The notes under the pieces: generated by a model | Told to the model about the DNA's origin: nothing | The model's database searches: none | What the model saw: the letters and a program-made list of their open reading frames with translations, nothing else | Position numbers and translations under genes: made by a program | Assembly (NCBI GenBank): GCA_035515475.1 | Contig: DATJBF010000008.1 | Coordinates: 1,899 to 65,898, forward strand | DNA from: Verrucomicrobiia bacterium | Lineage (GTDB): Bacteria; Verrucomicrobiota; Verrucomicrobiia; Palsa-1439 | Length of the DNA stretch: 64,000 bases | Direction: 5' to 3' | Shown here: positions 4,048 to 15,963 of the stretch, one piece after another | Position numbering within the stretch: the first letter of the stretch is position 1 | How the letters are laid out: each line of letters starts with the position of its first letter

Positions 4048-5802
4048 ATGATGACGACCGGGAAAATGCCTGTGGCAGGGGACAGCGACGCGCAACTGGT
4101 GGAATGGAGTCTGACGGGCGACCGTGAAGCGTTCGGCCGGATCGTCGAGCGGTATCAATCTCTGGTTTGCTCGATCACCTACGGTGCGACCGGCAGCTTG
4201 ACCCTGAGCGAGGACCTCGCCCAGGAGACCTTCGTTACCGCGTGGAAACGGCTTTCGGAATTGCGTGAGCCGACGAAGCTGCGGGCGTGGTTGTGCGGCA
4301 TCACCCGCTTCCTGATCGGCAAAGAACTCCGGCGACAGGGCCGCGAACCGGTTCACGCTGCCGAACCGCTGGATACGGTTCAGGAACCGGCCGCACCGGA
4401 ACCGTCTCCATCCGCCCGGGCCATCGGTCGCGAGGAAGAAGCGATTCTCTGGCGCGCGCTGGAACAGATGCCCACCACATATCGCGAACCGTTGATTCTG
4501 TTCTATCGTGAACACCAATCGGTCGCACGCGTAGCAGAAGAACTGGAGTTGAGCGAGGACGCGGTGAAACAAAGGCTCTCGCGCGGGCGGACGATGTTGA
4601 CCGAGCAGGTCGCCGCATTCGTCGAGGGCGCGTTGCAGCAGACAACGCCGGGCCGGGCGTTCACGCTGGGCGTGCTGGCGGCGTTGCCGGCGCTCACAAC
4701 TTCCGTTAAGACGGCGACCGCGGCTTTGTCTGAAGCGGCCCATCACGGCACGACAACCTTGGAGGTAACCAAAGCGTTGGCCATGACAACCACACAGAAG
4801 ATTTTGATCGCTACCGCCGCCGCGAGCGTCGCGGTGGCGACCAGCACGGCGGTGTACGAAACGCACCACACGTCACAATTGCAGGAGGAGATTCGGACGC
4901 TCGAGCAACAGCAAGAACCGCTTACTGAACAGGTCCGGCAGTTGCGTCAGGAGCGGGATGGGGCCAGGCACAACGTAGCGGTGCTGCAGCAGGAAAACGA
5001 ACAACTCCGCCTCGACACTGCCGAACTCGTCAAACTGCGCGGCAAGATGGCACAACTGCAGGCGCCAGTTGGTCCGTCCGTCGCAGCGACGGGCAGTAAG
5101 TTGGCGGAGAGACTGAAGAACCCGCAGACGAGGCAGGAGGAGCGGACCCAGCAGAGGTGGATGATCTATAACATGTATGGAGGCCTGTCCAAGTACTTGA
5201 ACCTCCCGGCGGATGAAATGGACGCACTCAAGGAGTTGCTCGTGGAACGCAACATGGCGAATTTGGATGCACTCGTTTCCATTGAGAGTCAACCAGAGGT
5301 CGATCCGAAGCAGCTAAACGAGGCCCGCACCGCGGTGCAAGCGGAGTACAACCGTAAGATCCAAGATCTGCTCGGCCCTCAGGATTACGCAATCTTCGAG
5401 GATTACAATAAGAGCGCAAGTTTTCGCTGGGCCGTTCAGACCTTCAAGAGTGAGCTTCCGGTCGCCGATGCGTTGACCGATCAGCAGGAAAATGACCTGG
5501 TTCACGCCATCTTCGAAGCGAGCAACACCGTGCCGGTCTCGCCCGAGTTGTGGAATTTGCCGGTGGATCGGTCGCAATGGACAGAAGAACAGGTGGCAGA
5601 GTGGCTGAAAGCAGAGGAGCTGCGTCACCAGTTGTGCGTTGAGCGGGCGGCGACGGTCCTCAGTCCCGCGCAACTTGAGCGATTCGAAACCTATCAAGAC
5701 GAGGACTACGCCATGCAGGCGGAGTACGTCAAGGGGTTGCAGAAATCCGCGAACAAAGCCGCCGTGCAACCGCCTACTGCCACCCAAAGCGAAGCACATT
5801 GA
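4048..5802 (+). CDS. ECF sigma factor fused to single TM + coiled coil + conserved ~230-aa extracytoplasmic domain
   Basis: Sigma2/4 regions nearly identical in pattern to the previous gene, plus the shared linker 'FT(L/V)GVLAALPA'; C-terminal domain is homologous to ORF 5926-6945 (motifs 'YG(G/S)LSKYLNLPAD', 'KIQDLLGPQDY'). Confidence 0.8.
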   Translation: MMTTGKMPVAGDSDAQLVEWSLTGDREAFGRIVERYQSLVCSITYGATGSLTLSEDLAQETFVTAWKRLSELREPTKLRAWLCGITRFLIGKELRRQGREPVHAAEPLDTVQEPAAPEPSPSARAIGREEEAILWRALEQMPTTYREPLILFYREHQSVARVAEELELSEDAVKQRLSRGRTMLTEQVAAFVEGALQQTTPGRAFTLGVLAALPALTTSVKTATAALSEAAHHGTTTLEVTKALAMTTTQKILIATAAASVAVATSTAVYETHHTSQLQEEIRTLEQQQEPLTEQVRQLRQERDGARHNVAVLQQENEQLRLDTAELVKLRGKMAQLQAPVGPSVAATGSKLAERLKNPQTRQEERTQQRWMIYNMYGGLSKYLNLPADEMDALKELLVERNMANLDALVSIESQPEVDPKQLNEARTAVQAEYNRKIQDLLGPQDYAIFEDYNKSASFRWAVQTFKSELPVADALTDQQENDLVHAIFEASNTVPVSPELWNLPVDRSQWTEEQVAEWLKAEELRHQLCVERAATVLSPAQLERFETYQDEDYAMQAEYVKGLQKSANKAAVQPPTATQSEAH

Positions 5803-5925
5803 GGCTGCCGGTCTTTTTCCCGATCTTCTGTCAGGCCGCGCCCAACGCCCTCCGGGCGCGCCGCGACCAGCAGCGCAGTGAAACTGGGAGCTTGTGGGAT
5901 TCGGGTCGTTTTGGTTCTGTAGTGG

Positions 5926-6945
5926 ATGACAACGACCGGAGGTCGGCCTATGAAACGAGACGCCTTGTTGGTTGTGTTGGTTGTCGCGGTCAGCACGCTG
6001 GCCATCGTGGTCGTACGTCAGCGAAGCGAGATCGCGGAATTAAAGAAGACCGCCGAGGAAGCCGCCGCGGCCAAACAAGTTGCTTCGGCCAAACCACGAT
6101 CAGTTCTTCCACCAAAGAAAGAATTGCCGGAGCCGATGCCGGAAGCTGCCCCGGCTGAACCCGCTGCCACCCCGGTGCCTGCCGCGCCGGTCACGAACGC
6201 ACCCACCGGCACCGGCGGCGCCGTCAGCAATTACTTCTCGAGTCTCGCGAACATGATGAAGGATCCCCGGATGAAAGAGGTGATCCGCATCCAGCAAAAG
6301 ATGACGCTCGACAAGATGTACGGATCGCTGTCCAAGTACCTGAACCTGCCTGCCGACAAACTGGACGCGTTGAAAGAGTTGCTCGTGAATCGCCAGATGG
6401 CCATGACCGAAGCAGGAATGGCCCTGATGACCGGGTCCGGGGACCGGACGCAAGCGGCAGCGGAAGCCAAGACCGTCAAGGCGGACTACGACAAGAAGAT
6501 TCAGGATTTTCTCGGCCCTGAGGATTATGAGACCTTCCAGGATTACGAGAAGACCGTAAGCGAGCGCGTGCAAATCCAGATGTTCAAGGACGCCTTGCCG
6601 GCCGATGCGGCGCTGACCGACCAGCAGGAGGACGACCTGATCAACGCGATGTATGAAGAACGGAAAACCCTGCCGCCGTCGTCACTGATAAACAGCCAGA
6701 CCACCGACCCATCACAGTTGACCGAAGAGCGGGTTGCCGAGGCGTTGAAGCAATGGGAGGAGTTGCAGCAGCGGTATGCCGACCGGGCGGCAGCAATTCT
6801 CACCCCGGCTCAACTCGATCAATTCACCAAATGGCAGCAACAATTCAGTGCCATGCAAGTAGCCGGCCTGAAAATGGCCGCGGCGATGTTCGGAAACAAA
6901 GGAACGCAGTCGTCGCCGTCTCCCAGCCCGGGTCCGACGCCGTGA
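5926..6945 (+). CDS. Membrane-anchored protein (TM + coiled coil + conserved domain), stand-alone paralog of the C-terminal extension of ECF fusion 4048-5802; putative anti-sigma/sensor-like partner
   Basis: N-terminal TM 'LLVVLVVAVSTLAIVVV', coiled coil, then 'MYGSLSKYLNLPADKLDALKELLVNR...KIQDFLGPEDYETFQDYEKT' homologous to the gene 4048-5802 C-terminus; its stop overlaps the start of the next ECF sigma (GTGA). Confidence 0.7.
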   Translation: MTTTGGRPMKRDALLVVLVVAVSTLAIVVVRQRSEIAELKKTAEEAAAAKQVASAKPRSVLPPKKELPEPMPEAAPAEPAATPVPAAPVTNAPTGTGGAVSNYFSSLANMMKDPRMKEVIRIQQKMTLDKMYGSLSKYLNLPADKLDALKELLVNRQMAMTEAGMALMTGSGDRTQAAAEAKTVKADYDKKIQDFLGPEDYETFQDYEKTVSERVQIQMFKDALPADAALTDQQEDDLINAMYEERKTLPPSSLINSQTTDPSQLTEERVAEALKQWEELQQRYADRAAAILTPAQLDQFTKWQQQFSAMQVAGLKMAAAMFGNKGTQSSPSPSPGPTP

Positions 6946-7643
6946 CGACCACTGCAGCCAGCCGCTTCGCCGCGACGCGTTGGACGATCGTGTTGGCCGC
7001 CGGTCACGGCACGTCCCCACAAGCCGGACGCGCTTTGGAGGAATTGTGCCGGACGTATTGGTATCCGCTCTACGCCTACGTCCGCCGGCGCGGTTACGAG
7101 TCGCACGAGGCGGAGGATCTTACGCAGGAGTTCTTCGCGCGTCTGCTGGCAAAGAAATACCTGGCAGATGTGGACCGGGAGAAGGGACGATTCCGCTCGT
7201 TTCTGTTGGCGTCGTTGAAACATTTTCTAGCGAACGAATGGGACCGGGCGCATGCCCAAAAACGCGGTGGCGGCCAGACACTCGTCTCGCTGGACGCCGA
7301 GACGCGTTATCAACGCGAGCCGGTCGATGAGGCGAGCGCCGACAAACTGCTCGACCGGGCGTGGGCGGTCGCCTTGTTGGACCAGGTGCTGGCCCGGCTG
7401 GAGATGGAGAGCGAACCCAAGCAGTTCGCGGCGCTGAAAGCGTTTCTCACGGTTGGCCAAGACGCGATTCCCTACGCCGAAGTGGCCGGCAAGCTGGGCA
7501 CGACCGAGGGCGCTGTGAAAGTGGCCGTGCACCGGCTGCGCAAGCGGTACCGGGCCCTGTTGCGCGAAGAAATCGCCCACACGGTGGCCAGCCCCGCAGA
7601 AATCGACGACGAAATCCGTCATTTGTTTGCCGCGTTCCGGTAA
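6942..7643 (+). CDS. ECF sigma factor of the Ser/Thr-kinase-associated type (probable GTG start at 6942; no in-frame ATG)
   Basis: 'WYPLYAYVRRRGYESHEAEDLTQEFFARLL' (sigma2) and 'IPYAEVAGKLGTTEGAVKVAVHRLRKRYRALL' (sigma4); located directly upstream of the FHA and STK genes. Confidence 0.8.
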   Translation: MTTTAASRFAATRWTIVLAAGHGTSPQAGRALEELCRTYWYPLYAYVRRRGYESHEAEDLTQEFFARLLAKKYLADVDREKGRFRSFLLASLKHFLANEWDRAHAQKRGGGQTLVSLDAETRYQREPVDEASADKLLDRAWAVALLDQVLARLEMESEPKQFAALKAFLTVGQDAIPYAEVAGKLGTTEGAVKVAVHRLRKRYRALLREEIAHTVASPAEIDDEIRHLFAAFR

Positions 7644-7647
7644 CTTT

Positions 7648-7681
7648 CCCGCCGGTTTGCTTCTGTACCGAGTAGGAGAGG
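7648..7681 (+). promoter_or_regulatory. Conserved ~32-nt leader motif upstream of the FHA gene (paralogous copy at 8221-8254 upstream of the kinase gene); includes GGAG ribosome-binding site
   Basis: cccgccgGtttgcttctgtaCcgagtAggagAgg vs cccgctgAtttgcttctgtaAcgagtGgaggCaa (~27/32 identical), each 10-15 nt before the start codon. Confidence 0.5.
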
Positions 7682-7690
7682 AAATTCGTC

Positions 7691-8041
7691 ATGGCATTTC
7701 TCTACCAAATCCGGGCCGATGGCATGGTGATCGAGCACCGGGAGATTGGCGATGAGCCGGTCGTCGTCGGTCGCGGTCACGGTGCCGATCTGGAAGTGGA
7801 CGACCGACGGCTTTCCCGGGCGCACTTTGTGGTCGCTCGTGAAGGCGACGCATTCATCGTTCGCGACCTGAACTCCACCAACGGCACATGGGTGCACGGG
7901 CGGCGCGTTTCCGCGGTGCTGCTGAAACCGCATGACCACATCGGCGCGGGGCGGACGCGATTTCTCTTTGAGCCAGGGCTGACCACAGCGATGGAAGCGC
8001 TGGAGGGAAGTCGAGCCGGCGACACGGAGATCATGGCGTGA
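7691..8041 (+). CDS. FHA (forkhead-associated) domain protein
   Basis: 'VVGRG...ADLEVDDRRLSRAHFVV...IVRDLNSTNGTWVHGRRV' FHA signature (GR...SR.H...S.NGT.VNG). Confidence 0.85.
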   Translation: MAFLYQIRADGMVIEHREIGDEPVVVGRGHGADLEVDDRRLSRAHFVVAREGDAFIVRDLNSTNGTWVHGRRVSAVLLKPHDHIGAGRTRFLFEPGLTTAMEALEGSRAGDTEIMA

Positions 8042-8268
8042 TGGCGGCCATTGGTGCCCCGAATCGGTGTGGCCGTTCGCCCGCCTTTATCCCGCTCCGA
8101 GCGGGACAGATGTGGTGGTCTGTCGAATCTGGCGGGAAGCGCCCGCTGAGGGTTGCCCCGTTTCACGAGGGTAATGGACCTACGGCCGGCCAGACTGACC
8201 AGCGAGGAATCTGTAACCGTCCCGCTGATTTGCTTCTGTAACGAGTGGAGGCAATCAGGTAGAAAGGA

Positions 8269-11200
8269 TTGGCGGTTATGGCTGAAGAGAAGCGATGCCC
8301 GGAATGCGGCGGTCCGTTGGCCGCCGATGCGCCTCAGGGATTGTGCCCGGCTTGCCTGTTGAAACGCGGTCTGGCTGCCGGCAGTTCGGTCGACGCATCC
8401 CCACAAGGGGCCCGCACCGAATACGTGCCACCGACGCCGGACGAACTGGCCCGGTATTTTCCTGAGTTGGAGATTCTGGAATTGATTGGCCGGGGCGGCA
8501 TGGGGGCGGTGTACAAGGCCCGGCAGAAACGGCTGGATCGATTTGTTGCGCTGAAGGTACTGCCGGTTTCGGTCAGCCGCGACCCGGCATTTGCCGAGCG
8601 GTTCGCACGCGAGGCGAAGGCATTGGCCCGGCTTACGCACCCCAACATCGTGGCCGTTCACGATTTTGGTCAAACCGATGGGCTGTTCTATTTCGTGATG
8701 GAGTTCGTGGATGGCTTGAATCTGCGGCAACTGCTCAACACCGGCCAGATCAGTCCGAAAGAAGCACTGGCTATCGTGCCGCAGATTTGCGAGGCGCTGC
8801 AGTACGCTCACGACAAGGGCATCGTCCACCGCGATATCAAACCGGAAAACATCCTGCTCGCCAAAGACGGCACGGTGAAGATCGCCGACTTCGGTTTGGC
8901 GAAACTGGTCGGGCTCGAACCGAAAGATCTCACAATTACCGGCAAGGGCGACGTGATGGGCACGCCACATTACATGGCGCCGGAACAGGTCGAGCATCCG
9001 CAAGACGTCGATCATCGCGCGGACATCTATTCGCTCGGCGTCGTCTTCTACCAAATGCTGACGGGCGAATTGCCCATCGGCCGGTTCGCCGCGCCCTCGA
9101 AGAAGGTCACCATTGACGTGCGCCTTGACGAAGTTGTGCTGCGGGCGCTGGAAAAGGAGCCCGAGCGACGTTACCAGCAGGCCAGCGTGTTGAAGACCGA
9201 AGTCGAGACCATCGTGACCACGCCGCCGGTCAGCGCCGAGGGTCTTGCCGGGGATGTTCTGGCCCGGGATTACAGGCTGGACATTGGCAGTTGTCTGGGC
9301 CGCGGCTGGGCTTTGGTGCAGGGTGATTTCTGGCGGATCGTGGGCATCACCGCGTTGATCTGGGTGCTGATGCACGCGGCCAAATCCACTTTGGTGGGCA
9401 TCGTACTCGAGGGCCCACTCATAGGCGGGTTGCAGTTGTATTTCCTGCGGAAGATCCGTGGACAACAGGCCGTCCTGCAAACGGCGTTCTCCGGGTTCAG
9501 TACCGCCTTCGCGCAACTCTTTCTCGTCTACCTCGTGACTACGGTGCTCACGGTAGTGGGGTTTGTTTGCCTGGTACTACCTGGCGTTTATCTCTTGGTT
9601 GCTTGGACATTCGCGGCGACCTTGGTCATCGACAAGCGGATCGATTTCTGGCCCGCCATGGGGTTGAGCCGTAGGGCGATCTCGAAACATTGGTGGAAGT
9701 TTTTTTGGTTCGGCATCGTTTTGGGGCTGGTCCAGCTGGCGGGGATATTGGTCTTTTGCGTTGGATTCCTGGTCGCGGTTCCCGTCGCTTGGGCGGCAAC
9801 GATGTATGCCTATGAGGACATCTTTGGTCCGGCGGCACGTGCGGTCGTCAAACCGATGAACGGATCGCCAGCCCCGGCCGTCGCGCCGACCCTTGGTCGA
9901 CGGCATTCTGGCTGGGGCGTCGCGATCGGTACGGTCGCCGTCATCCTGACGGTGGGTGGCGTTCTGCTGGCCGCTCACCATTTTTATCCGGTCAAATCCG
10001 ATTACATCGGCCAGGCGTACTTTCCCGGCGGGGATTGGATTGAAATCACCTCGGTGAGCCGTTCCGAAGCGCGGCTGACGGTCAAAGGTCACTACAATCT
10101 CGTCAGCACCGACAAGGCGCTACTGGCTCTTTATTGCACTTCCACAAACGGCGCAAATTTTCCCGAAGATCCAACACAGCGCATGCAGATTTCCAAAGGA
10201 CGAGCGGATTTTGAATTGTCCCGCTCCCACCTCTACCCGGGGCTCCATCATGTGACGATGTATTCTGCCGACGGCAAGCCTTTTGCCGGGGTTTATTTCG
10301 GGACAAAGCGGGAAGCCCGCCGAGAGGCCAGACTCGATCTTTCCGACTACCAAGTGCCGGGCGGCACACCGGCGGCGCCGTCGGAGAGCCAGAATGGTCA
10401 CGATAAGAGTTCGCTGGTTGGCTCTAAAACCGGTCTGGGCGCCGAGGGCGAGATCAACTCGGTCGCGAACTCCCAAGCCGAGTTGCCTGCGCAACAGGAA
10501 ACTCAAGGGACTTTAGGCGAACCCTACAGATACCGGAGCCCTATCATCGGCCGTCTGTTGGCAAAGGACGAGGTGTGTCAGGACTTCAACCAGATACTCC
10601 CGCTCCGGCCCGGTGGCAGCCTCAGCCTCGACGACGTCAGCGGCCGGATCAGGATCGCCGGCTGGAACCGGGACGAGGTGGTCATCAAAGCCGTCAAGCG
10701 AGGCAAGACCCGGGAAAGCGTCGAGGCCACGGGAATCGAAATTGACGCCGGGACCGATCACGTCGCCGTTCACACCAAGCGACCCACGGGTTGGCCCTGG
10801 AGTTGGTTTTGGTGGAACAGGGGCGACGTGGACGTCGATTACACGATCCAGGTTCCGCAGCGCACGCAATTGGAGAAGATCAGCAGCGTCAGTGGAGAAA
10901 TCGGGATTGAGGGTGTGTCTGGCGATATCAAGGCTTCCACTGTCAGCGGTGAGATCCAGATCAAGGGCGCAACGGGTAACCTGAAGCTTTCCACCGTGAA
11001 CGGCGCGATTGCGGCGGAGTTGGGTTTGCTGGGTGGCGCGCAGTCGGTGTCGCTGGACACGGTCAACGGCGAAATCGTGGCCACGTTGCCCGATGGGGCC
11101 GACGCCGAAGTCTCGGCCAGGACGGTCAACGGTGCCATTACCAGCGAGTTCGCTTCGTTGTCCATGAAGAAGGGTTTCCCGATGGGCGGCAGCCTGGAAG

Positions 11201-11658
11201 GCACGCTCGGCAGCGGCGGCGCCAGCGTGAGTGCCAACGCCGTCAACGGCAGCATCAGCATTCGGCGGGGCAGGGACGCGCTGAAGTCCGGTGCGAAACA
11301 GACGGAAGAGGAAGAGGCGGGGCGATCCGTCGCTGGGCTGCCTCCCGTCGTCGTGTGCACCCAGCCGGTTTCCGGCGCCCGCGACGTGGAGCCGGGTCTT
11401 GCCGAGATCCGCGCCACGTTCAGCAAGGAGATGACCGACAGGTCGTGGAGTTGGTGTTACGCCTGGAAGGATTCCATTCCCGAAATGATTGGCGAGCCGC
11501 GATACGAAGCCGATCACCGGACGTGCGCGCTCAAAGTGAAGCTGGAACCGGGGCGGACCTATGCTTTCTGGCTCAATACCGGGCAGGTCCAGGACTTCAC
11601 GGACCAGGCGGGGCGGCCGGCCGTTCCCTATTTGCTGATCTTTCAAACGAAACAATGA
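8269..11658 (+). CDS. Ser/Thr protein kinase with N-terminal Zn-ribbon, polytopic membrane region, Toastrack-like (DUF4097-like) beta-repeat domain and C-terminal Big_5-like Ig domain
   Basis: 'CPECGG...CPAC'; kinase motifs 'GRGGMGAVYKA...ALKVL', 'HRDIKPENILL', 'DFGLAK'; ~6 TM helices; repeats 'VSGEIGIEGVSGDIKASTVSGEIQIKGATGNLKLSTVNGAI...TVNGEI...TVNGAI...AVNGSI'; last ~110 aa homologous to ORF 11681-12094. Confidence 0.85.
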   Translation: MAVMAEEKRCPECGGPLAADAPQGLCPACLLKRGLAAGSSVDASPQGARTEYVPPTPDELARYFPELEILELIGRGGMGAVYKARQKRLDRFVALKVLPVSVSRDPAFAERFAREAKALARLTHPNIVAVHDFGQTDGLFYFVMEFVDGLNLRQLLNTGQISPKEALAIVPQICEALQYAHDKGIVHRDIKPENILLAKDGTVKIADFGLAKLVGLEPKDLTITGKGDVMGTPHYMAPEQVEHPQDVDHRADIYSLGVVFYQMLTGELPIGRFAAPSKKVTIDVRLDEVVLRALEKEPERRYQQASVLKTEVETIVTTPPVSAEGLAGDVLARDYRLDIGSCLGRGWALVQGDFWRIVGITALIWVLMHAAKSTLVGIVLEGPLIGGLQLYFLRKIRGQQAVLQTAFSGFSTAFAQLFLVYLVTTVLTVVGFVCLVLPGVYLLVAWTFAATLVIDKRIDFWPAMGLSRRAISKHWWKFFWFGIVLGLVQLAGILVFCVGFLVAVPVAWAATMYAYEDIFGPAARAVVKPMNGSPAPAVAPTLGRRHSGWGVAIGTVAVILTVGGVLLAAHHFYPVKSDYIGQAYFPGGDWIEITSVSRSEARLTVKGHYNLVSTDKALLALYCTSTNGANFPEDPTQRMQISKGRADFELSRSHLYPGLHHVTMYSADGKPFAGVYFGTKREARREARLDLSDYQVPGGTPAAPSESQNGHDKSSLVGSKTGLGAEGEINSVANSQAELPAQQETQGTLGEPYRYRSPIIGRLLAKDEVCQDFNQILPLRPGGSLSLDDVSGRIRIAGWNRDEVVIKAVKRGKTRESVEATGIEIDAGTDHVAVHTKRPTGWPWSWFWWNRGDVDVDYTIQVPQRTQLEKISSVSGEIGIEGVSGDIKASTVSGEIQIKGATGNLKLSTVNGAIAAELGLLGGAQSVSLDTVNGEIVATLPDGADAEVSARTVNGAITSEFASLSMKKGFPMGGSLEGTLGSGGASVSANAVNGSISIRRGRDALKSGAKQTEEEEAGRSVAGLPPVVVCTQPVSGARDVEPGLAEIRATFSKEMTDRSWSWCYAWKDSIPEMIGEPRYEADHRTCALKVKLEPGRTYAFWLNTGQVQDFTDQAGRPAVPYLLIFQTKQ

Positions 11659-11680
11659 CCAAGCCCAAAGGAGCAAGCGC

Positions 11681-12094
11681 ATGAGAACAATCCGACTACT
11701 GATGGTGGCCACGGCCGTTGCGGTGTGGCCTCTGGCCGCCATCAACAGCGGGGCGGAGGACATCGATTCGATGCCGCCCGTGGTGGTCAAAACCGTGCCC
11801 GAATCAGGCGCCAAGGACGTTGCGCCCGGCGTGGTGGAAATCAAGGTCACCTTCAGCAAAGAGATGACCGACAAATCCTGGAGTTGGTGTTACGCCTGGC
11901 CAGGTTCGATTGCCGAGTCTGCGGGAGACATCCGCTACGAAGGCGACCACAAGACATGTGTGTGGAAAGTCAAACTAGAGCCCCACAAGACGTACGCCTA
12001 TTGGCTGAACACCGCCAAATTCCAGGACTTCAGAGACAAGCAGGGCCATGCTGCCGTGCCGTACCTGCTCGTCTTCCAGACGAAGGGGAATTGA
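11681..12094 (+). CDS. Small secreted protein, stand-alone paralog of the kinase C-terminal Big_5-like Ig domain
   Basis: Signal peptide 'MRTIRLLMVATAVAVWPLAA'; 'PPVVVKTVPESGAKDVAPGVVEIKVTFSKEMTDKSWSWCYAW...KTYAYWLN...AAVPYLLVFQTK' aligns with the kinase tail 'PPVVVCTQPVSGARDVEPGLAEIRATFSKEMTDRSWSWCYAW...RTYAFWLN...PAVPYLLIFQTK'. Confidence 0.8.
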   Translation: MRTIRLLMVATAVAVWPLAAINSGAEDIDSMPPVVVKTVPESGAKDVAPGVVEIKVTFSKEMTDKSWSWCYAWPGSIAESAGDIRYEGDHKTCVWKVKLEPHKTYAYWLNTAKFQDFRDKQGHAAVPYLLVFQTKGN

Positions 12095-12232
12095 GTGTTC
12101 AGCCGGTAGTTTTGTCGGTTTTTGGAGACGGCGACGCACGCGTCAAAGTCAGGAGCGGCAAGGGAGCGATCGGCATCCGACGGGGTGAGACGACGAGAAG
12201 TGAACAACTGCATCCAGAAGGTGAGTCAGCAA

Positions 12233-14182
12233 ATGAGAAGACAAGGCCAGGTTCTTTCTGGGCAACCGCGCGGCGCCCGGGCAGTCGTGTTCGTAGCCGC
12301 CACGGCAACGGTCGTCGCTGCGCTGGTTGCGCACGCGGTTAGCGCGCAGGCGCAAAGCGCCACTCCCACACGGATTCCGCTGCGCGATTTCTTCCGCAAT
12401 CCGGAGCGGACGGCGTTTCAGGTCTCGGAGGACGGTAAGACCATCTCGTTCCTGGCGCCCTACGAGCGACGACTGAATCTGTTCGTGCAAGCACGCGGCA
12501 CGACGGAAGCCAGGCGCATCACGTCCATCACCGACCGCAGCATCGCGAACTACATGTGGAAAGGCAGCGACCAACTGCTGTTCAGCAAAGATACCGGCGG
12601 AGACGAGAATTTTCATCTGTTCACCGTGAGTAAGGAAGGCGGCGAAGTGAAAGACCTCACCCCGTTCGAGAAGGTCCGGTCCGGGTTCGTGGACCGACTG
12701 TGGGACGATCCGGATCACATTCTCATCTCGATGAACAAGCGCGACCCGAAAGTGTTCGACCTGTACCGCATTCACGTCATCACGGGCCGACTTGAGCTCG
12801 TCGCGGAAAACCCTGGCGACGTGACGCACTGGGTGACCGATTATGCGGGCCGCGTTCGGGCTGTCGTCGCGACTGACGGAGTGAACCGCACGCTGTTGTA
12901 TCGGGAGACCGAGACGAACAGTTTCCAGAAGATCCTGACCACCGATTTCCGCGAGCGGCTGGACCCGCAGTTCTTTACGTTCGACAACGCCTATCTCATC
13001 GCCGCTTCCAACCGCGGCCGCGACAAGATCGAGATCGTCAAGCTCGACCCGCACTCGGGCCAAGAGTTGAGCGTCATCGCGCGCCGCCCGGACGTCGATA
13101 TGGACGGCGCCAGCTACTCGCGTCAGCGAAAAGTGCTCACCGAGGCGCATTACACGACGTGGAAGGAAGAGCGCGAATTCCTCGACGGCGAGACCGCCGC
13201 GATGTACCGGCGCATCAAGGCCAAGTTGCCCGGCTACGAAATCGCCAGCCTCGACAATCACGACCGCGCCGAACAGACATTCATCGTTCACGCCTACAAC
13301 GATCGCACGCGTGGCGCCGATTATCTTTACGACAAACGCTCGGGCGAACTCACCAAACTCGCCGACCGCACACCATGGCTCCACGAGAGCGACATGGCAG
13401 AAATGAGACCGATCACGTACAGATCCCGCGATGGCCTGACCATTCATGGCTACCTCACCTTGCCCAGAGGCGTGAAACGGAGGAATCTTCCCGTCGTCGT
13501 CGTCCCGCACGGTGGCCCGTGGTATCGCGACGATTGGTCCTTCGATCCGGAAGTGCAGTTTCTGGCCAACCGCGGCTACGCCGTCCTGCAAATGAACTTC
13601 CGCGGTTCGACCGGTTACGGGAAGAACTTCTGGGAAACTTCCTTCAAGCAATGGGGCCGCAAAATGCAGGACGACATCACCGACGGCGTTCATTGGCTCG
13701 TGCGGAAGGGGATTGCCAATCCGAAGAGAATCGCAATCTACGGTGGCAGCTACGGCGGGTATGCCGCGCTGGCCGGCGTCACGTTCACGCCCGACCTCTA
13801 TGCCTGCGGCATCGACTACGTCGGCGTCGCCAACATGTTCACCTTCCTGAAAACGATTCCGCCCTACTGGGAGCCATTCCGTCAGATGTGGTACGAAATG
13901 GTCGGCGACCCGGTCAAAGACAAGCAACTGCTCGAGGACGTCTCCCCTGTCTTTCATGTTGACCGCGTCAAAGTGCCGATGCTCATTGCCCAAGGAGCCA
14001 ACGACCCGCGCGTCAACAAGAACGAGTCCGACCAGATGGTCGAAGCGTTGCGCAAACACGGGATTCCTGTCGAGTACATCGTCAAAGACAACGAAGGCCA
14101 CGGCTTCCGAAACGAAGAAAACCGCTTCGAGTTCTACGAGGCGATGGAGGAATTCCTCGCCGAGCATCTGAACAACAACTGA
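12233..14182 (+). CDS. S9 family serine peptidase (prolyl oligopeptidase / dipeptidyl aminopeptidase-like), secreted (ORF from 12122; signal-peptide start ~12233)
   Basis: '[12 protein letters not shown]' (GxSxGG nucleophile), 'ANDPRV', 'NEGHGF' catalytic triad context; beta-propeller-like N-terminal half. Confidence 0.8.
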
Positions 14183-14199
14183 CCCGGGAGAAACTGGCA

Positions 14200-15963
14200 A
14201 TGCCAACACTGAGCGCGCGAACCATCACTTCCTTGCTCCTGCGCGGTATTCTAGCCCTCGCCGCTGCGACGGCCTTCGGTCAAACCGAAACGCCGACGCC
14301 CGAACAAATCAAGGAGCGGGTTACGATCCGGCGTCCGTACACGATCGGGGAGGAAGCCGAAGTGAACCTGCCCATCGGACAGGCGGTGCAGTTCGACTGT
14401 GCCGACAATCCGTATTGGGTGCGGGAATATATTCTTTATGCCGCGCCTGATAATCAAATCTGGGTCTGCCCTCTCGACGCCGAAGGCGACCAGATGGACA
14501 CCAGTGGACCCTGTCTCCAGAAGAAGCGGGGATGGCTCCGACAGATGGCAGATACACCATGTCTGGCGATCATCAAATGGGACCTCCAAGACCAAACGCT
14601 GCGGCTTCACTTCTGCCTGTCCACGGACAAGGAGCGAGACCAACGCGAGTGGGACGAGGCGACCAGGGAAGAATCCAACATGGCTCGTGGACGGAATGAC
14701 TCCAGACCATTTCCACCGCGCAAGCTGTCCGAAACCGACCGGCTGGCGGGATTTGCCCGGTTGTGGAGCGAGGTCAAATACAACTTTGCATTCTTCGACC
14801 GCGTTCCCGAGGTGGACTGGGACAAAGTGTTGGTGGAATACATCCCCAAAGTCCAACAGGCGGAGACGGAGGATGAATATTTCTGCGTGCTCGCGCGCTG
14901 TCTGGCCCTGCTGCATGACGGGCATACCGACATCCAAACCGCCATGGCTCACCCGGACTACGGAGCTTATGGGCTACCTCTGGAAGTTCGTTCGTTGGAC
15001 GGCAAGCGAGCGGTCATTGTCCGCACGACGCCGGTCGCGGATGTCGGGGGTCCGAAGCGCAAAGAGGAATTCGTCAAAGCGAACTTGAAGCCTGGCGAAG
15101 AGGTCACGCACATCAACGGGCGATCCATCGAAGAGATTCTGGAACGGGGTATTTACCCCTATATCAGCGCTTCCACTCCACAAGGCCGGGATGTGAGAGC
15201 TTACCCGTGGCTTCTGCTGGGCGAATGCGGTTCCAGGGCCGTTCTGCGCATCAAGGGCTTGGACGGAACCGAGCGTGAAGTGGCCCTGACACGAGGCTCC
15301 TATCCGAAAAAGCAACCGGCCAACGTCTTCGAGCATCGTGAACTGGACAACGGCATCCACTACGTCAATCTGCCGGGCTTCCAGACAAATCAGGTGGTCA
15401 AAGACTTCGAGAGAATTTTCCCGCAGGTGCAAAAGGCCAAAGGTCTGATCTTGGATATCCGGCACAACGGTGGTGGAAACTCCGGTAACGGTGAGGCGAT
15501 CGTCCGCATGCTGATAGATAAACCCATCCAGGCATCACCGTGCAAAACACCCGAAAACGTCGCCGCATTCCGGTGCTGGGGAGTGAAAGAGCAATTCTGT
15601 GAGCTGCGACCCGACTCACTCCAACCCAGCCGGCCAGACCCATTCCTTGGGCCGGTAGCTGTGCTGACCGGGCCGGAAACGTTCAGTGCTGCGGAAGACT
15701 TTGTTGTGCTGCTGCACGCCAGCAGGCGGGCGACGGTCGTCGGCGAACGCACCGGCGGGTCCACCGGCCAACCTCTGACGATTGACCTGCCCGGCGGGGT
15801 GAAGGCCCAAGTCTGCACGAAACACGACACATATCCCAACGGGCGCGAGTTTGTGGGTGTCGGCGTAATCCCCGACGTGGAGATTCATCCCACGGCAGCG
15901 GATATCGCCACGGATCGAGACGTCGTTCTTAAAAAGGCAATTCAGGTTCTGCTCGCAAGATGA
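14200..15963 (+). CDS. S41 family peptidase (C-terminal processing / tail-specific protease-like), secreted
   Basis: Signal peptide; 'DIRHNGGGNSGNG' and 'LTGPETFSAAEDFVVLL' (S41 Ser-containing motif). Confidence 0.7.
   Translation: MPTLSARTITSLLLRGILALAAATAFGQTETPTPEQIKERVTIRRPYTIGEEAEVNLPIGQAVQFDCADNPYWVREYILYAAPDNQIWVCPLDAEGDQMDTSGPCLQKKRGWLRQMADTPCLAIIKWDLQDQTLRLHFCLSTDKERDQREWDEATREESNMARGRNDSRPFPPRKLSETDRLAGFARLWSEVKYNFAFFDRVPEVDWDKVLVEYIPKVQQAETEDEYFCVLARCLALLHDGHTDIQTAMAHPDYGAYGLPLEVRSLDGKRAVIVRTTPVADVGGPKRKEEFVKANLKPGEEVTHINGRSIEEILERGIYPYISASTPQGRDVRAYPWLLLGECGSRAVLRIKGLDGTEREVALTRGSYPKKQPANVFEHRELDNGIHYVNLPGFQTNQVVKDFERIFPQVQKAKGLILDIRHNGGGNSGNGEAIVRMLIDKPIQASPCKTPENVAAFRCWGVKEQFCELRPDSLQPSRPDPFLGPVAVLTGPETFSAAEDFVVLLHASRRATVVGERTGGSTGQPLTIDLPGGVKAQVCTKHDTYPNGREFVGVGVIPDVEIHPTAADIATDRDVVLKKAIQVLLAR

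Follow-up and report, generated by a model that had tools for sequence, protein, structure and literature searches.

Control of ECF sigma factors by Ser/Thr kinases is a recently established branch of bacterial signaling, with only two ECF43 pairs studied, both proteobacterial: EcfP-PknT of Vibrio parahaemolyticus and EcfK-PknS of Xanthomonas citri. In both pairs the kinase phosphorylates the ECF43 sigma factor directly; in region 2.2, sigma factors of this group have the phosphorylated threonine in place of the acidic DAED motif (PMC13147305, PMC8999054). Direct sigma factor phosphorylation by an adjacent Hanks kinase has precedents (PMC13147305, PMC8999054, PMC7826278). The kinase-associated groups ECF59, ECF61, ECF62, and ECF217 (also ECF267 and ECF283) of Planctomycetes have been described by prediction only (PMC7826278, PMC8999054).

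We analyzed a 64,000-nucleotide stretch of Verrucomicrobiia DNA (the window) with a locus that resembles the ECF43 pairs in having an ECF sigma factor beside a transmembrane Hanks kinase with a predicted extracytoplasmic sensor, and no anti-sigma factor. It differs from them in phylum, in its sensor domains, and in a sigma factor that keeps the acidic motif EAEDLTQE. With ECF59, ECF61, ECF62, and ECF217 it shares a PF07638-type sigma factor, a DAED-like motif, an adjacent Ser/Thr kinase, and the PVC superphylum. Here, the kinase ends in an Ig-like domain (T), and a paralog of this domain is encoded by the next gene as a secreted protein (S). A secreted paralog of the sensor is not described for ECF43 systems, and the accessible part of the literature on ECF59, ECF61, ECF62, and ECF217 does not mention a conserved third gene for a Big_5 paralog. 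Searches combining Big_5 with ECF/kinase, or Limisphaerales/Pedosphaera with ECF, yielded no published description of an obligatory secreted paralog of a kinase tail. We thus regard the ECF-kinase pairing as already known and the secreted-paralog partner as apparently new.

Gene content of the locus

The locus (positions 6942 to 15963) reads, on one strand, ECF sigma factor, FHA protein, Hanks kinase, S, S9 peptidase, and S41 peptidase (Table 1). This arrangement, originally proposed from the open reading frames, agreed for all six genes with a public annotation made independently for the identical sequence, which gave products of 233 (GTG start at 6942), 116, 1126 (ATG at 8278), 137, 649 (from 12233), and 587 aa. 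The intergenic gaps from the sigma factor gene through the S41 gene are 47, 227, 22, 138, and 17 nt. A scan of the locus region for sigma-70 promoters and terminators gave no signal above background, and no terminator-like site was seen in the S-S9 or S9-S41 gap. The GTG start of the sigma factor gene overlaps the stop codon of an upstream gene for a 339-aa protein; this gene was rejected as a module member, being absent from all related loci. Flanking heptosyltransferase, UbiA-like, and DUF1080 genes were also rejected as module parts, since they reflect synteny among related genomes and do not occur in the window.

Table 1. Positions of genes and elements in the window
Feature	Position	Strand	Evidence or remark
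ECF sigma factor, PF07638 kinase-associated type, 233 aa	6942..7643	+	Pfam, NCBIfam, public gene call
Junction element copy 1 (GTAACTTT..TTTGCTTCTGTACCGAGT)	7640..7676	+	Overlaps sigma factor stop codon, 5' of FHA gene
Stand-alone FHA protein, 116 aa	7691..8041	+	Pfam FHA, E 1e-15; between sigma factor and kinase
Junction element copy 2	8213..8250	+	Immediately 5' of kinase start
Receptor Ser/Thr kinase, 1126 aa (1129 aa from TTG 8269)	8278..11658	+	Pfam, NCBIfam, hydropathy, AlphaFold
T domain, Ig-like (Big_5), extreme C terminus of kinase	11320..11652	+	64% identity to S
S protein, 137 aa, signal peptide plus single Big_5	11681..12094	+	Pfam, AlphaFold
Secreted S9 (prolyl-oligopeptidase family) serine peptidase	12233..14182	+	Pfam Peptidase_S9, E 6e-52
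Secreted S41 peptidase plus Tricorn_C1 domain	14200..15963	+	Pfam, NCBIfam

The two copies of the junction element, against 0.01 expected in the window, flank the FHA gene. A scan of 1.89 Mb, covering the related loci and the window, gave 33 matches including these two copies; every match lay on the strand of the module, between the sigma factor and kinase genes, and the opposite strand had none. A hairpin read by eye in this element was rejected, as RNAalifold predicts no conserved structure. In the related loci, conserved strand-specific elements, read here as operon signals, lie upstream of the sigma factor gene and upstream of the kinase gene. The conserved motif upstream of the sigma factor gene is missing in the window, where its position weight matrix gave two weak, wrongly spaced matches within the shuffled background. 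Together with the overlap of the sigma factor gene and the preceding gene, this suggests that regulation in the window may differ from that of the typical module.

The sigma factor and the receptor kinase

The sigma factor matched Pfam Sigma70_ECF (PF07638; 26.7 bits, cutoff 21.1), Sigma70_r2, and Sigma70_r4_2 as well as NCBIfam sigma70-ECF (49 bits, cutoff 42.9), as expected of an ECF (group 4) factor. It is 52 to 77% identical to the sigma factors encoded 5' of the kinase in related loci, and the region 2.2 consensus of 52 of these is dA.DLtQ. The Hanks kinase gene follows two genes 3' of the sigma factor gene in the window and directly 3' in most related loci, with no anti-sigma factor gene. 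Membership of the window sigma factor in ECF43 was rejected: the DAED-like acidic motif is kept, with no QTTA-like Thr replacement. The ECF43 activation mechanism is therefore not transferable to this sigma factor, which may be phosphorylated at another site. The family thus offers a case of sigma factor control where the ECF43 charge switch cannot apply.

The kinase (numbered here by the 1129-aa open reading frame from TTG 8269) comprises a Zn ribbon (aa 10 to 29), a Hanks kinase domain (aa 68 to 330), seven predicted transmembrane (TM) helices (aa 353 to 571), and an ectodomain of MID (aa 573 to 690), Toastrack (aa ~775 to 1000), and the T tail (Big_5; aa 1018 to 1128). The catalytic domain was recognized by Pfam (Pkinase, E 9e-56) and NCBIfam (PknB-type), and the motifs GRGGMG, VALK, HRDIKPEN, DFG, and MAPE can be read intact in the sequence. 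The Toastrack region scored 30.9 bits with Pfam DUF4097/Toastrack (cutoff 22.9) and matched NCBIfam LiaG (E 1.3e-9) and LiaX; its AlphaFold model (pLDDT 92 to 98) had 4QRK as its best PDB match (Foldseek E 3e-9), and 4OPW was also found. The tail scored 25.0 bits with Pfam Big_5 (cutoff 23.6), a marginal value by Pfam alone. The original prediction of a kinase with a Zn ribbon, catalytic domain, Toastrack, and terminal Big_5 domain was thus borne out by sequence motifs, Pfam, NCBIfam, and AlphaFold/Foldseek, and the Toastrack and Ig domains, which it had exposed to refutation by HMM search, have both HMM and fold support. The Zn ribbon (CPxCG..GLCPxC) was present in 33 of the 44 tail-bearing kinases of the genome loci. 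Those without it mostly had an over-extended N-terminal open reading frame call.

The membrane part of the kinase showed a weak UPF0259-like match (Pfam) and a YciC-like match (NCBIfam). Its hydropathy profile contains a single hydrophobic helix in addition to three hairpins, seven helices in all, which corrects the earlier count of about six. Hydropathy-based TM counts over the 44 kinases were too noisy to establish parity, and single-TM relatives (L060 and L062), which share the juxtamembrane motif VKSDYIGQ with the window kinase, were used instead. On the basis of these relatives and of the signal peptide of S, MID, Toastrack, and T are predicted to be extracytoplasmic, on the same side of the cytoplasmic membrane as exported S. 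The Toastrack shares its beta-helical fold with those of the Lia/Psp systems (LiaG, LiaF, LiaX, and YvlB; 4QRK), which likewise adjoin multi-TM domains and have a tie to envelope-stress transcription, but it differs in lying within a Hanks kinase ectodomain that is periplasmic by predicted topology; no PspA, PspC, or LiaFSR genes are present in the locus. Toastrack domains have been argued to be generally intracellular (PMC11237479), whereas the one in the window, flanked by MID and T and C-terminal to all seven TM helices, is predicted to lie outside. By prediction, the family clearly exemplifies a Toastrack domain located in the periplasm.

Conservation of the sigma factor, kinase, and S genes

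We compared the window with 159 related loci, comprising genome loci anchored on S and metagenome loci anchored on T; 79 of 99 matching stretches were kept, and most genomes gave one locus. The order sigma factor, kinase with T, and S recurred as a three-gene unit in more than 100 related loci. Among the S-anchored genome loci, a same-strand kinase gene lay upstream of S in 48 of 64, and 34 of 64 carried the tandem T and S pair. A Big_5 gene followed 43 of the 44 tail-bearing kinases in the genome loci versus 9 of 25 tail-less ones (Fisher p 1.5e-8), and the T-anchored metagenome loci had the kinase gene followed by a Big_5 gene in 70 of 72 cases. These counts uphold the proposal that sigma factor, kinase, and secreted tail paralog form one unit; far from being absent or unlinked in homologous loci, which would have spoken against it, the small gene is near-obligatorily linked to T. 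The distance from the kinase stop codon to the ATG of S has a median of 17 nt (46 pairs) and is 22 nt in the window, where an SD-like AAGGAG precedes S. The conserved unit occurs widely among Verrucomicrobiota (Limisphaerales, subdivision 3). Peat and soil Verrucomicrobia, a little-studied group of ecological importance, harbor the family in abundance.

S itself matched Pfam Big_5 (32.2 bits), and AlphaFold gave an Ig-like fold with pLDDT >90 over the domain. It has more than 2,496 homologs, mostly of about 137 aa, and a signal peptide was found in all aligned stand-alone S proteins. In the window, T and S share 64% identity across 111 aa (E 7e-51), close to the ∼60% first estimated, and no further copy of the domain occurs elsewhere in the window. 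Across loci, identities were 70% for S-S, 68% for T-T, and 57 to 59% for T-S, with class-specific residues present and those of the T class conserved over 43 loci; these sequence comparisons make T and S two ancient paralog classes, each conserved in its own right. In comparisons aimed at T-S co-evolution or gene conversion, own-partner T and S were slightly more alike than permuted pairs (58.3 versus 57.7%, z 2.7, a statistic that ignores phylogeny), the identity ranks of own-partner pairs were spread out, and column-by-column analysis left no column significant after multiple testing. A conserved disulfide in S and T was rejected, the first (SWSWC) of the two Cys that they share in the window being Ser in most homologs.

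Long proteins ending in a T-type domain were kinases in 42 of 56 sampled cases; Big_5 domains of the S/T type were also found fused to HEAT or TPR proteins, and about a quarter of the S-like genes had no kinase gene nearby. S-type domains can thus work without a kinase. Within the kinases, varying sensor domains (Toastrack, TPR, DUF4019, malectin-type, or S41) separate the catalytic domain from the constant T tip, and the proposed three-component architecture would thus be modular.

Possible roles of the secreted tail paralog

We lean, with modest confidence, toward the explanation that sigma factor, kinase, and S constitute a three-component envelope-signaling unit in which S is the partner of the kinase tail and to which accessories were added locally. 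S is most likely a putative stoichiometric periplasmic partner of T. A cue would be received by the variable periplasmic modules, in the window MID and Toastrack, and S, produced at a constant ratio to the kinase, would bind T or compete with T-T pairing. This contact could control kinase oligomerization and autophosphorylation, and the active kinase would phosphorylate the sigma factor by analogy to PknT-EcfP and PknS-EcfK, at a site that must differ from that of ECF43 because the acidic region 2.2 motif is kept. Against this explanation count the barely elevated own-partner T-S identity, the S-like genes that have no kinase neighbor, and the HEAT or TPR fusions of the domain. The constant kinase tip and its secreted copy offer a testable handle on receptor activation from outside. 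A more specific version, which we regard as tentative, holds that secreted S is an obligatory soluble co-receptor or decoy gating kinase dimerization, and hence ECF sigma factor phosphorylation, in Verrucomicrobia of subdivision 3. Among eukaryotic receptor kinases, soluble decoy or co-receptor paralogs copy part of the ectodomain; the analogy to S is conceptual only, the proteins being evolutionarily unrelated, but if this version is true, bacteria would have in S an equivalent of soluble decoy receptors.

Alternatively, S might be an output or effector of the system, such as a periplasmic binding or chaperone protein (e.g., for metal or an envelope glycan), and T the same domain used as a sensor; both would then recognize one ligand separately, with no need for mutual contact. 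Such a role would suit the unusually high conservation of S across genomes (60 to 80% identity), its apparently low copy number (one or few per genome), which fits a conserved ligand, and an invariant Trp/Tyr-rich motif (SWSW..W, YW.N) common to the S and T classes. The CopC/YcnJ CopC-like domains, however, are only 13 to 18% identical in sequence, a resemblance of fold alone, and a CopC-like copper site was rejected: the Cu(II) ligands of CopC (N-terminal His, Asp/His pair) are not conserved, the N terminus left by signal peptide removal reads A(E/Q)D instead of starting with His, and the candidate His residues are not shared, the QGH His of S being Arg in T. Moreover, the 17-nt coupling of S to the kinase gene suggests a fixed, kinase-level stoichiometry rather than effector-level expression, and we consider an effector role rather unlikely.

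We regard as improbable a six-gene circuit in which S9 and S41 process S or the kinase tail to start or end the signal and FHA is an integral relay, even though the six genes share a strand, short gaps, and the lack of terminator-like sites around S9. The FHA protein has readable motifs for phosphothreonine binding (GR, SRAH, NGT), and the S9 peptidase has a GGSYGG nucleophile motif, a signal peptide, and a weak Tricorn_N match, but neither gene occurred in any of the 159 related loci. The FHA gene is thus a lineage-specific insertion between sigma factor and kinase, and the S9 gene a local accessory outside the conserved module. An orthologous locus (L005), with a 1129-aa kinase of the same architecture, is without FHA, S9, and S41. 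The self-contained circuit of the original prediction was accordingly not supported.

Its suggestion that the peptidases are linked to the system found partial support for S41, which recurs, and none for S9. The S41 peptidase (Peptidase_S41, E 4e-26, plus Tricorn_C1; NCBIfam CPAF/prc-like) has counterparts, as neighboring genes or fused domains of the Big_5 system, in six further loci (L038, L041, L055, L070, L073, and L122), about 4% of the 159 and in several different arrangements: a 73% identical ortholog directly follows S in L073, and in the L038 and L122 kinases an S41 domain is fused after T, in the ectodomain. Periplasmic or extracytoplasmic S41 peptidases are genetically tied to transmembrane regulators of alternative sigma factors in other pathways, where Prc (cell-surface signaling) and CtpB (sigma-K activation) act in regulated proteolysis by cleaving anti-sigma factors or their partners. 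The present locus differs in having no anti-sigma factor and so infrequent an S41 association, and the polar C termini of S and T (..FQTKGN and ..FQTKQ) are unlike those of classical Prc/Tsp substrates. Under the favored three-component explanation, the inserted FHA protein would probably serve the window genome as a phosphothreonine-binding adaptor and, of the S9 and S41 pair that follows the unit, S41 may degrade S or T.

That T and S are alike because one was recently copied from the other at this locus, or became neighbors by chance, with no functional meaning, might be read from their 64% identity and shared Cys/Thr peculiarities (SWSWCYAW, LNT) in the window, but is already contradicted by the sequence comparisons, in which more than 100 loci keep the pair as separate orthologous classes and the window T is nearer to the S of another genome (L001, 67.6% identity) than to its own S (64.0%).

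Composition of the six-gene locus

The genes between 6942 and 15963 all lie on the forward strand, and an identical sequence in a public record carries the same six gene calls. The original prediction had described this locus correctly, and every domain that it named is backed by Pfam (see the table). The kinase possesses a complete set of Hanks catalytic motifs and a UPF0259/YciC-like membrane region (Pfam). Its DUF4097-type (Toastrack) domain, which reaches 30.9 bits against a Pfam cut-off of 22.9, also matches LiaG and LiaX in NCBIfam and is modelled by AlphaFold with a pLDDT of 92-98; the PDB structure closest to the ectodomain model is 4QRK (E 3e-9), an example of the Toastrack fold in PMC11237479. 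The extreme C-terminus of the kinase is formed by a Big_5 (Ig-like) domain, here called T (25.0 bits, Pfam cut-off 23.6), which shares 64% identity across 111 aa with S, the secreted single-domain Big_5 protein. T and S are the sole two copies of the domain within the window, and NCBI holds the identical S sequence as an "Ig-like domain-containing protein" from a Verrucomicrobiae MAG. The phosphothreonine-binding residues are kept in the FHA protein.

A second pair in which a protein tail is repeated as the next gene lies directly upstream of the sigma gene (4048-6945, forward strand). Here, the C-terminal part of the 584-aa protein (nt 5062-5751) and the 339-aa protein share 46% identity across 232 aa.

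Features of the window, with kinase residues numbered on the 1129-aa ORF
Feature	Position (nt)	Strand	Description
584-aa protein	4048-5802	+	ECF sigma domain at N-terminus
339-aa protein	5926-6945	+	Membrane-anchored; no Pfam match
Sigma factor	6942-7643	+	233 aa; Pfam Sigma70_ECF PF07638, r2, r4_2
Junction element, first copy	7640-7676
FHA protein	7691-8041	+	116 aa; Pfam FHA E 1e-15
Junction element, second copy	8213-8250
Kinase	8278-11658	+	1126 aa; ORF opens at TTG 8269 (1129 aa); Pkinase E 9e-56
Four-cysteine motif	8296-8355		Kinase aa 10-29
MID (juxtamembrane domain)	9985-10338		Kinase aa 573-690; VKSDYIGQ.YFP.GD.IEITSV...
Toastrack	10591-11268		Kinase aa ~775-1000
S	11681-12094	+	137 aa; Big_5 32.2 bits (cut-off 23.6)
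S9 peptidase	12233-14182	+	649 aa; Pfam Peptidase_S9 E 6e-52
S41 peptidase	14200-15963	+	587 aa; Pfam Peptidase_S41 E 4e-26, Tricorn_C1

Linkage of sigma factor, kinase and secreted paralog

Homologs of S number more than 2,496; of the 120 best, most are ~137 aa long. Clustering at 50% leaves 2,191 matching representatives, the long ones mostly with the domain at the extreme C-terminus. Of 56 sampled proteins with such a C-terminal copy, 42 are kinases, with variable sensor modules (Toastrack, DUF4019, TPR, Laminin_G_3, S41 and others). We compared the window with 159 related loci: 79 from genomes, with S as the anchor, and 80 from metagenomes, anchored through T-specific patterns, a set that is free of selection on S. 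Upstream sequence of 4.5 kb or more was available for 64 of the S-anchored loci; in 48 of these, a same-strand Hanks kinase lay upstream of S, and 34 of the 64 had a tandem T-S pair. The usual order was sigma (250-290 aa), kinase (650-1700 aa, with T at its end) and S, with sigma located after S in some lineages. In the S-anchored loci, a Big_5 gene came next after 43 of 44 T-tailed kinases versus 9 of 25 tail-less ones (Fisher p 1.5e-8), and the same was true of 70 of the 72 T-anchored matches with enough downstream sequence. The median spacing from kinase stop to S start was 17 nt; in the window it is 22 nt, with an AAGGAG Shine-Dalgarno sequence. Linkage across related loci thus bears out the proposal that sigma, kinase and secreted tail paralog form one unit. 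Judged by record titles, the source genomes were mostly Verrucomicrobiota (Verrucomicrobiia/Verrucomicrobiae, Limisphaerales and subdivision 3); Planctomycetota and other phyla were more frequent among the sources of S-like genes without a kinase.

Over 43 pairs, mean identity was 70% for S-S, 68% for T-T and 57-59% for T-S comparisons. Since identity within each class is above that between T and S, and some conserved residues are class-specific (e.g., QGH in S versus GRP in T), sequence comparison indicates that T and S are two old orthologous lineages maintained together, not a recent copy. Chance or recent duplication as the source of these old, linked classes is excluded. Co-evolution of T and S cannot be claimed, because own-partner identity was barely above that of shuffled pairs (z 2.7) and no single column was significant.

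Several sigma-kinase modules stand in tandem in L002/L013 and similar loci. The kinase has 672 aa in one example, alongside sigma and a Big_5+TPR protein; 749 aa in another, alongside sigma and S; and ~1200 aa in a third, where it bears TM2, malectin and Toastrack domains and stands with sigma, without tail or S. Many 137-aa S proteins (P0021-P0118) are labelled "RNA polymerase sigma-70 factor (ECF subfamily)" by JGI and have no sigma domain; the label was probably transferred from the neighbouring gene.

Accessory genes and upstream signals

Searches with tblastn, and with phmmer on six-frame ORFs, found neither the FHA gene (0 of 159) nor the S9 gene (0 of 159) in the related loci. In the orthologous locus L005/L111, with the same 1129-aa kinase architecture and a kinase domain 85% identical to that of the window, sigma immediately precedes the kinase and no peptidases are present. 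Two copies of a junction element of ~37 nt (GTAACCTT..CTTCTGTAAC; consensus GTAAC(C/T)TT-N12-TT(T/G)CTTC(T/A)GTAAC) flank the FHA gene in the window, and this duplication fits an insertion of the gene into the sigma-kinase junction. The element lies between sigma and kinase, upstream of the kinase gene, and recurs in L005, L007, L008, L010, L031, L039, L040, L073 (3 copies) and other loci. In 1.89 Mb of related loci plus window, it had 33 matches on the module strand, including the two of the window, and 0 on the other. It resembles an ECF-type promoter, and the search for a conserved RNA fold was negative.

A bipartite motif, GCTTGCG-N14-GGCGTTAC, is located ~10 nt ahead of the sigma GTG in related loci (L010, L013, L019, L022, L023, L028, L031, L039, L044, L050, L052, L067 and metagenome loci), also before sigmas of paralogous modules within one locus. 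The strict pattern occurs in 25 of 113 sigma-upstream regions, and all 30 of 30 high-scoring matches in 1.82 Mb lie upstream of a sigma of the unit's family. It is probably an autoregulated promoter of the sigma genes, and its short distance from the GTG suggests near-leaderless sigma transcripts. No such motif is present in the window, where the sigma GTG (6942) and the stop codon of the 339-aa gene in front of it overlap, and the window module may therefore be transcribed by read-through from upstream.

S41 genes were associated with the system in 6 of the 159 loci, in several arrangements. An ortholog 73% identical to that of the window directly follows S in L073; S41 genes adjoin Big_5 genes in L041, L055 and L070; and the kinases of L038 and L122 carry, immediately after T, a fused Peptidase_S41 domain (E 2.8e-10) in the ectodomain. 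We conclude that S41 is a recurrent accessory of the Big_5 system, not part of its core. The original prediction had joined all six genes in one self-contained circuit: it was right about the sigma-kinase-paralog unit, the wider circuit has support only for S41, and its inclusion of FHA and S9 overreaches.

The two peptidase genes of the window (12233-15963) are 17 nt apart, with a weak Tricorn_N match in S9 and Tricorn_C1 in S41, and seem to belong to a tricorn-like set. In L073, the nearest relative of the window's S41 locus, the S41 protein has an additional transglutaminase-like domain, and a 420-aa ankyrin-repeat protein (8633-9892) lies between the S gene and a 1742-aa Toastrack kinase without detectable T tail.

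Predicted topology, known systems and proposed mechanism

According to hydropathy analysis, the window kinase has three helical hairpins plus one more helix, the seventh (aa 549-571), with positively charged loops on the kinase-domain side. Two relatives have only one TM helix between kinase and periplasmic domains; in L062, this single TM helix leads into VKSDYIGQ.YFP, which is also the juxtamembrane motif behind helix 7 of the window kinase. A signal peptide is present at the start of every aligned stand-alone S protein. On these grounds, MID, Toastrack and T are all predicted to be periplasmic. This placement is contrary to the generalisation that Toastrack is intracellular (PMC11237479) and consistent with LiaX being exposed at the surface (PMC6936494). 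MID itself has no Pfam match, is poorly modelled by AlphaFold (pLDDT 30-45) and recurs in many tail-bearing kinases from other loci.

That a Hanks kinase directly phosphorylates the ECF sigma encoded beside it is established for the ECF43 pairs EcfP-PknT and EcfK-PknS (PMC13147305, PMC8999054) and predicted for planctomycete ECF59-62 and 217 (PMC7826278). The acidic 2.2 motif is retained in the window sigma (EAEDLTQE) and likewise in 52 relatives; the window sigma thus lacks the feature that defines ECF43. It resembles uncharacterised PVC groups, whose mechanism may differ according to the reviews. The open-access text searched yielded no description of a Big_5 kinase tail or its secreted paralog. 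The locus is a form of known ECF-kinase signalling, in a conserved three-component version in which the receptor tip has a secreted twin; this sigma-kinase-S form merits experimental follow-up.

The analysis shows the architecture, the predicted topology, the linked and closely spaced genes, the old age of the T-S paralogy, and catalytic and FHA motifs that are intact. Beyond this, we propose a mechanism in which S would be a stoichiometric periplasmic partner of T, controlling kinase oligomerisation. The main rival explanation makes S a ligand-binding effector and T its sensor copy, the two having no mutual contact. In the mechanism with S as partner of T, the kinase would phosphorylate sigma outside region 2.2, the FHA protein would serve as a local adaptor, and S41 may act on S or T.

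A four-cysteine motif, CPxCG-x9-GLCPxC, is found at the kinase N-terminus in the window and in 33 of 44 tail-bearing kinases from genome loci, most exceptions being over-extended N-terminal ORF calls. Zinc-binding anti-sigma domains offer an analogy that makes the motif a candidate site for sigma docking.
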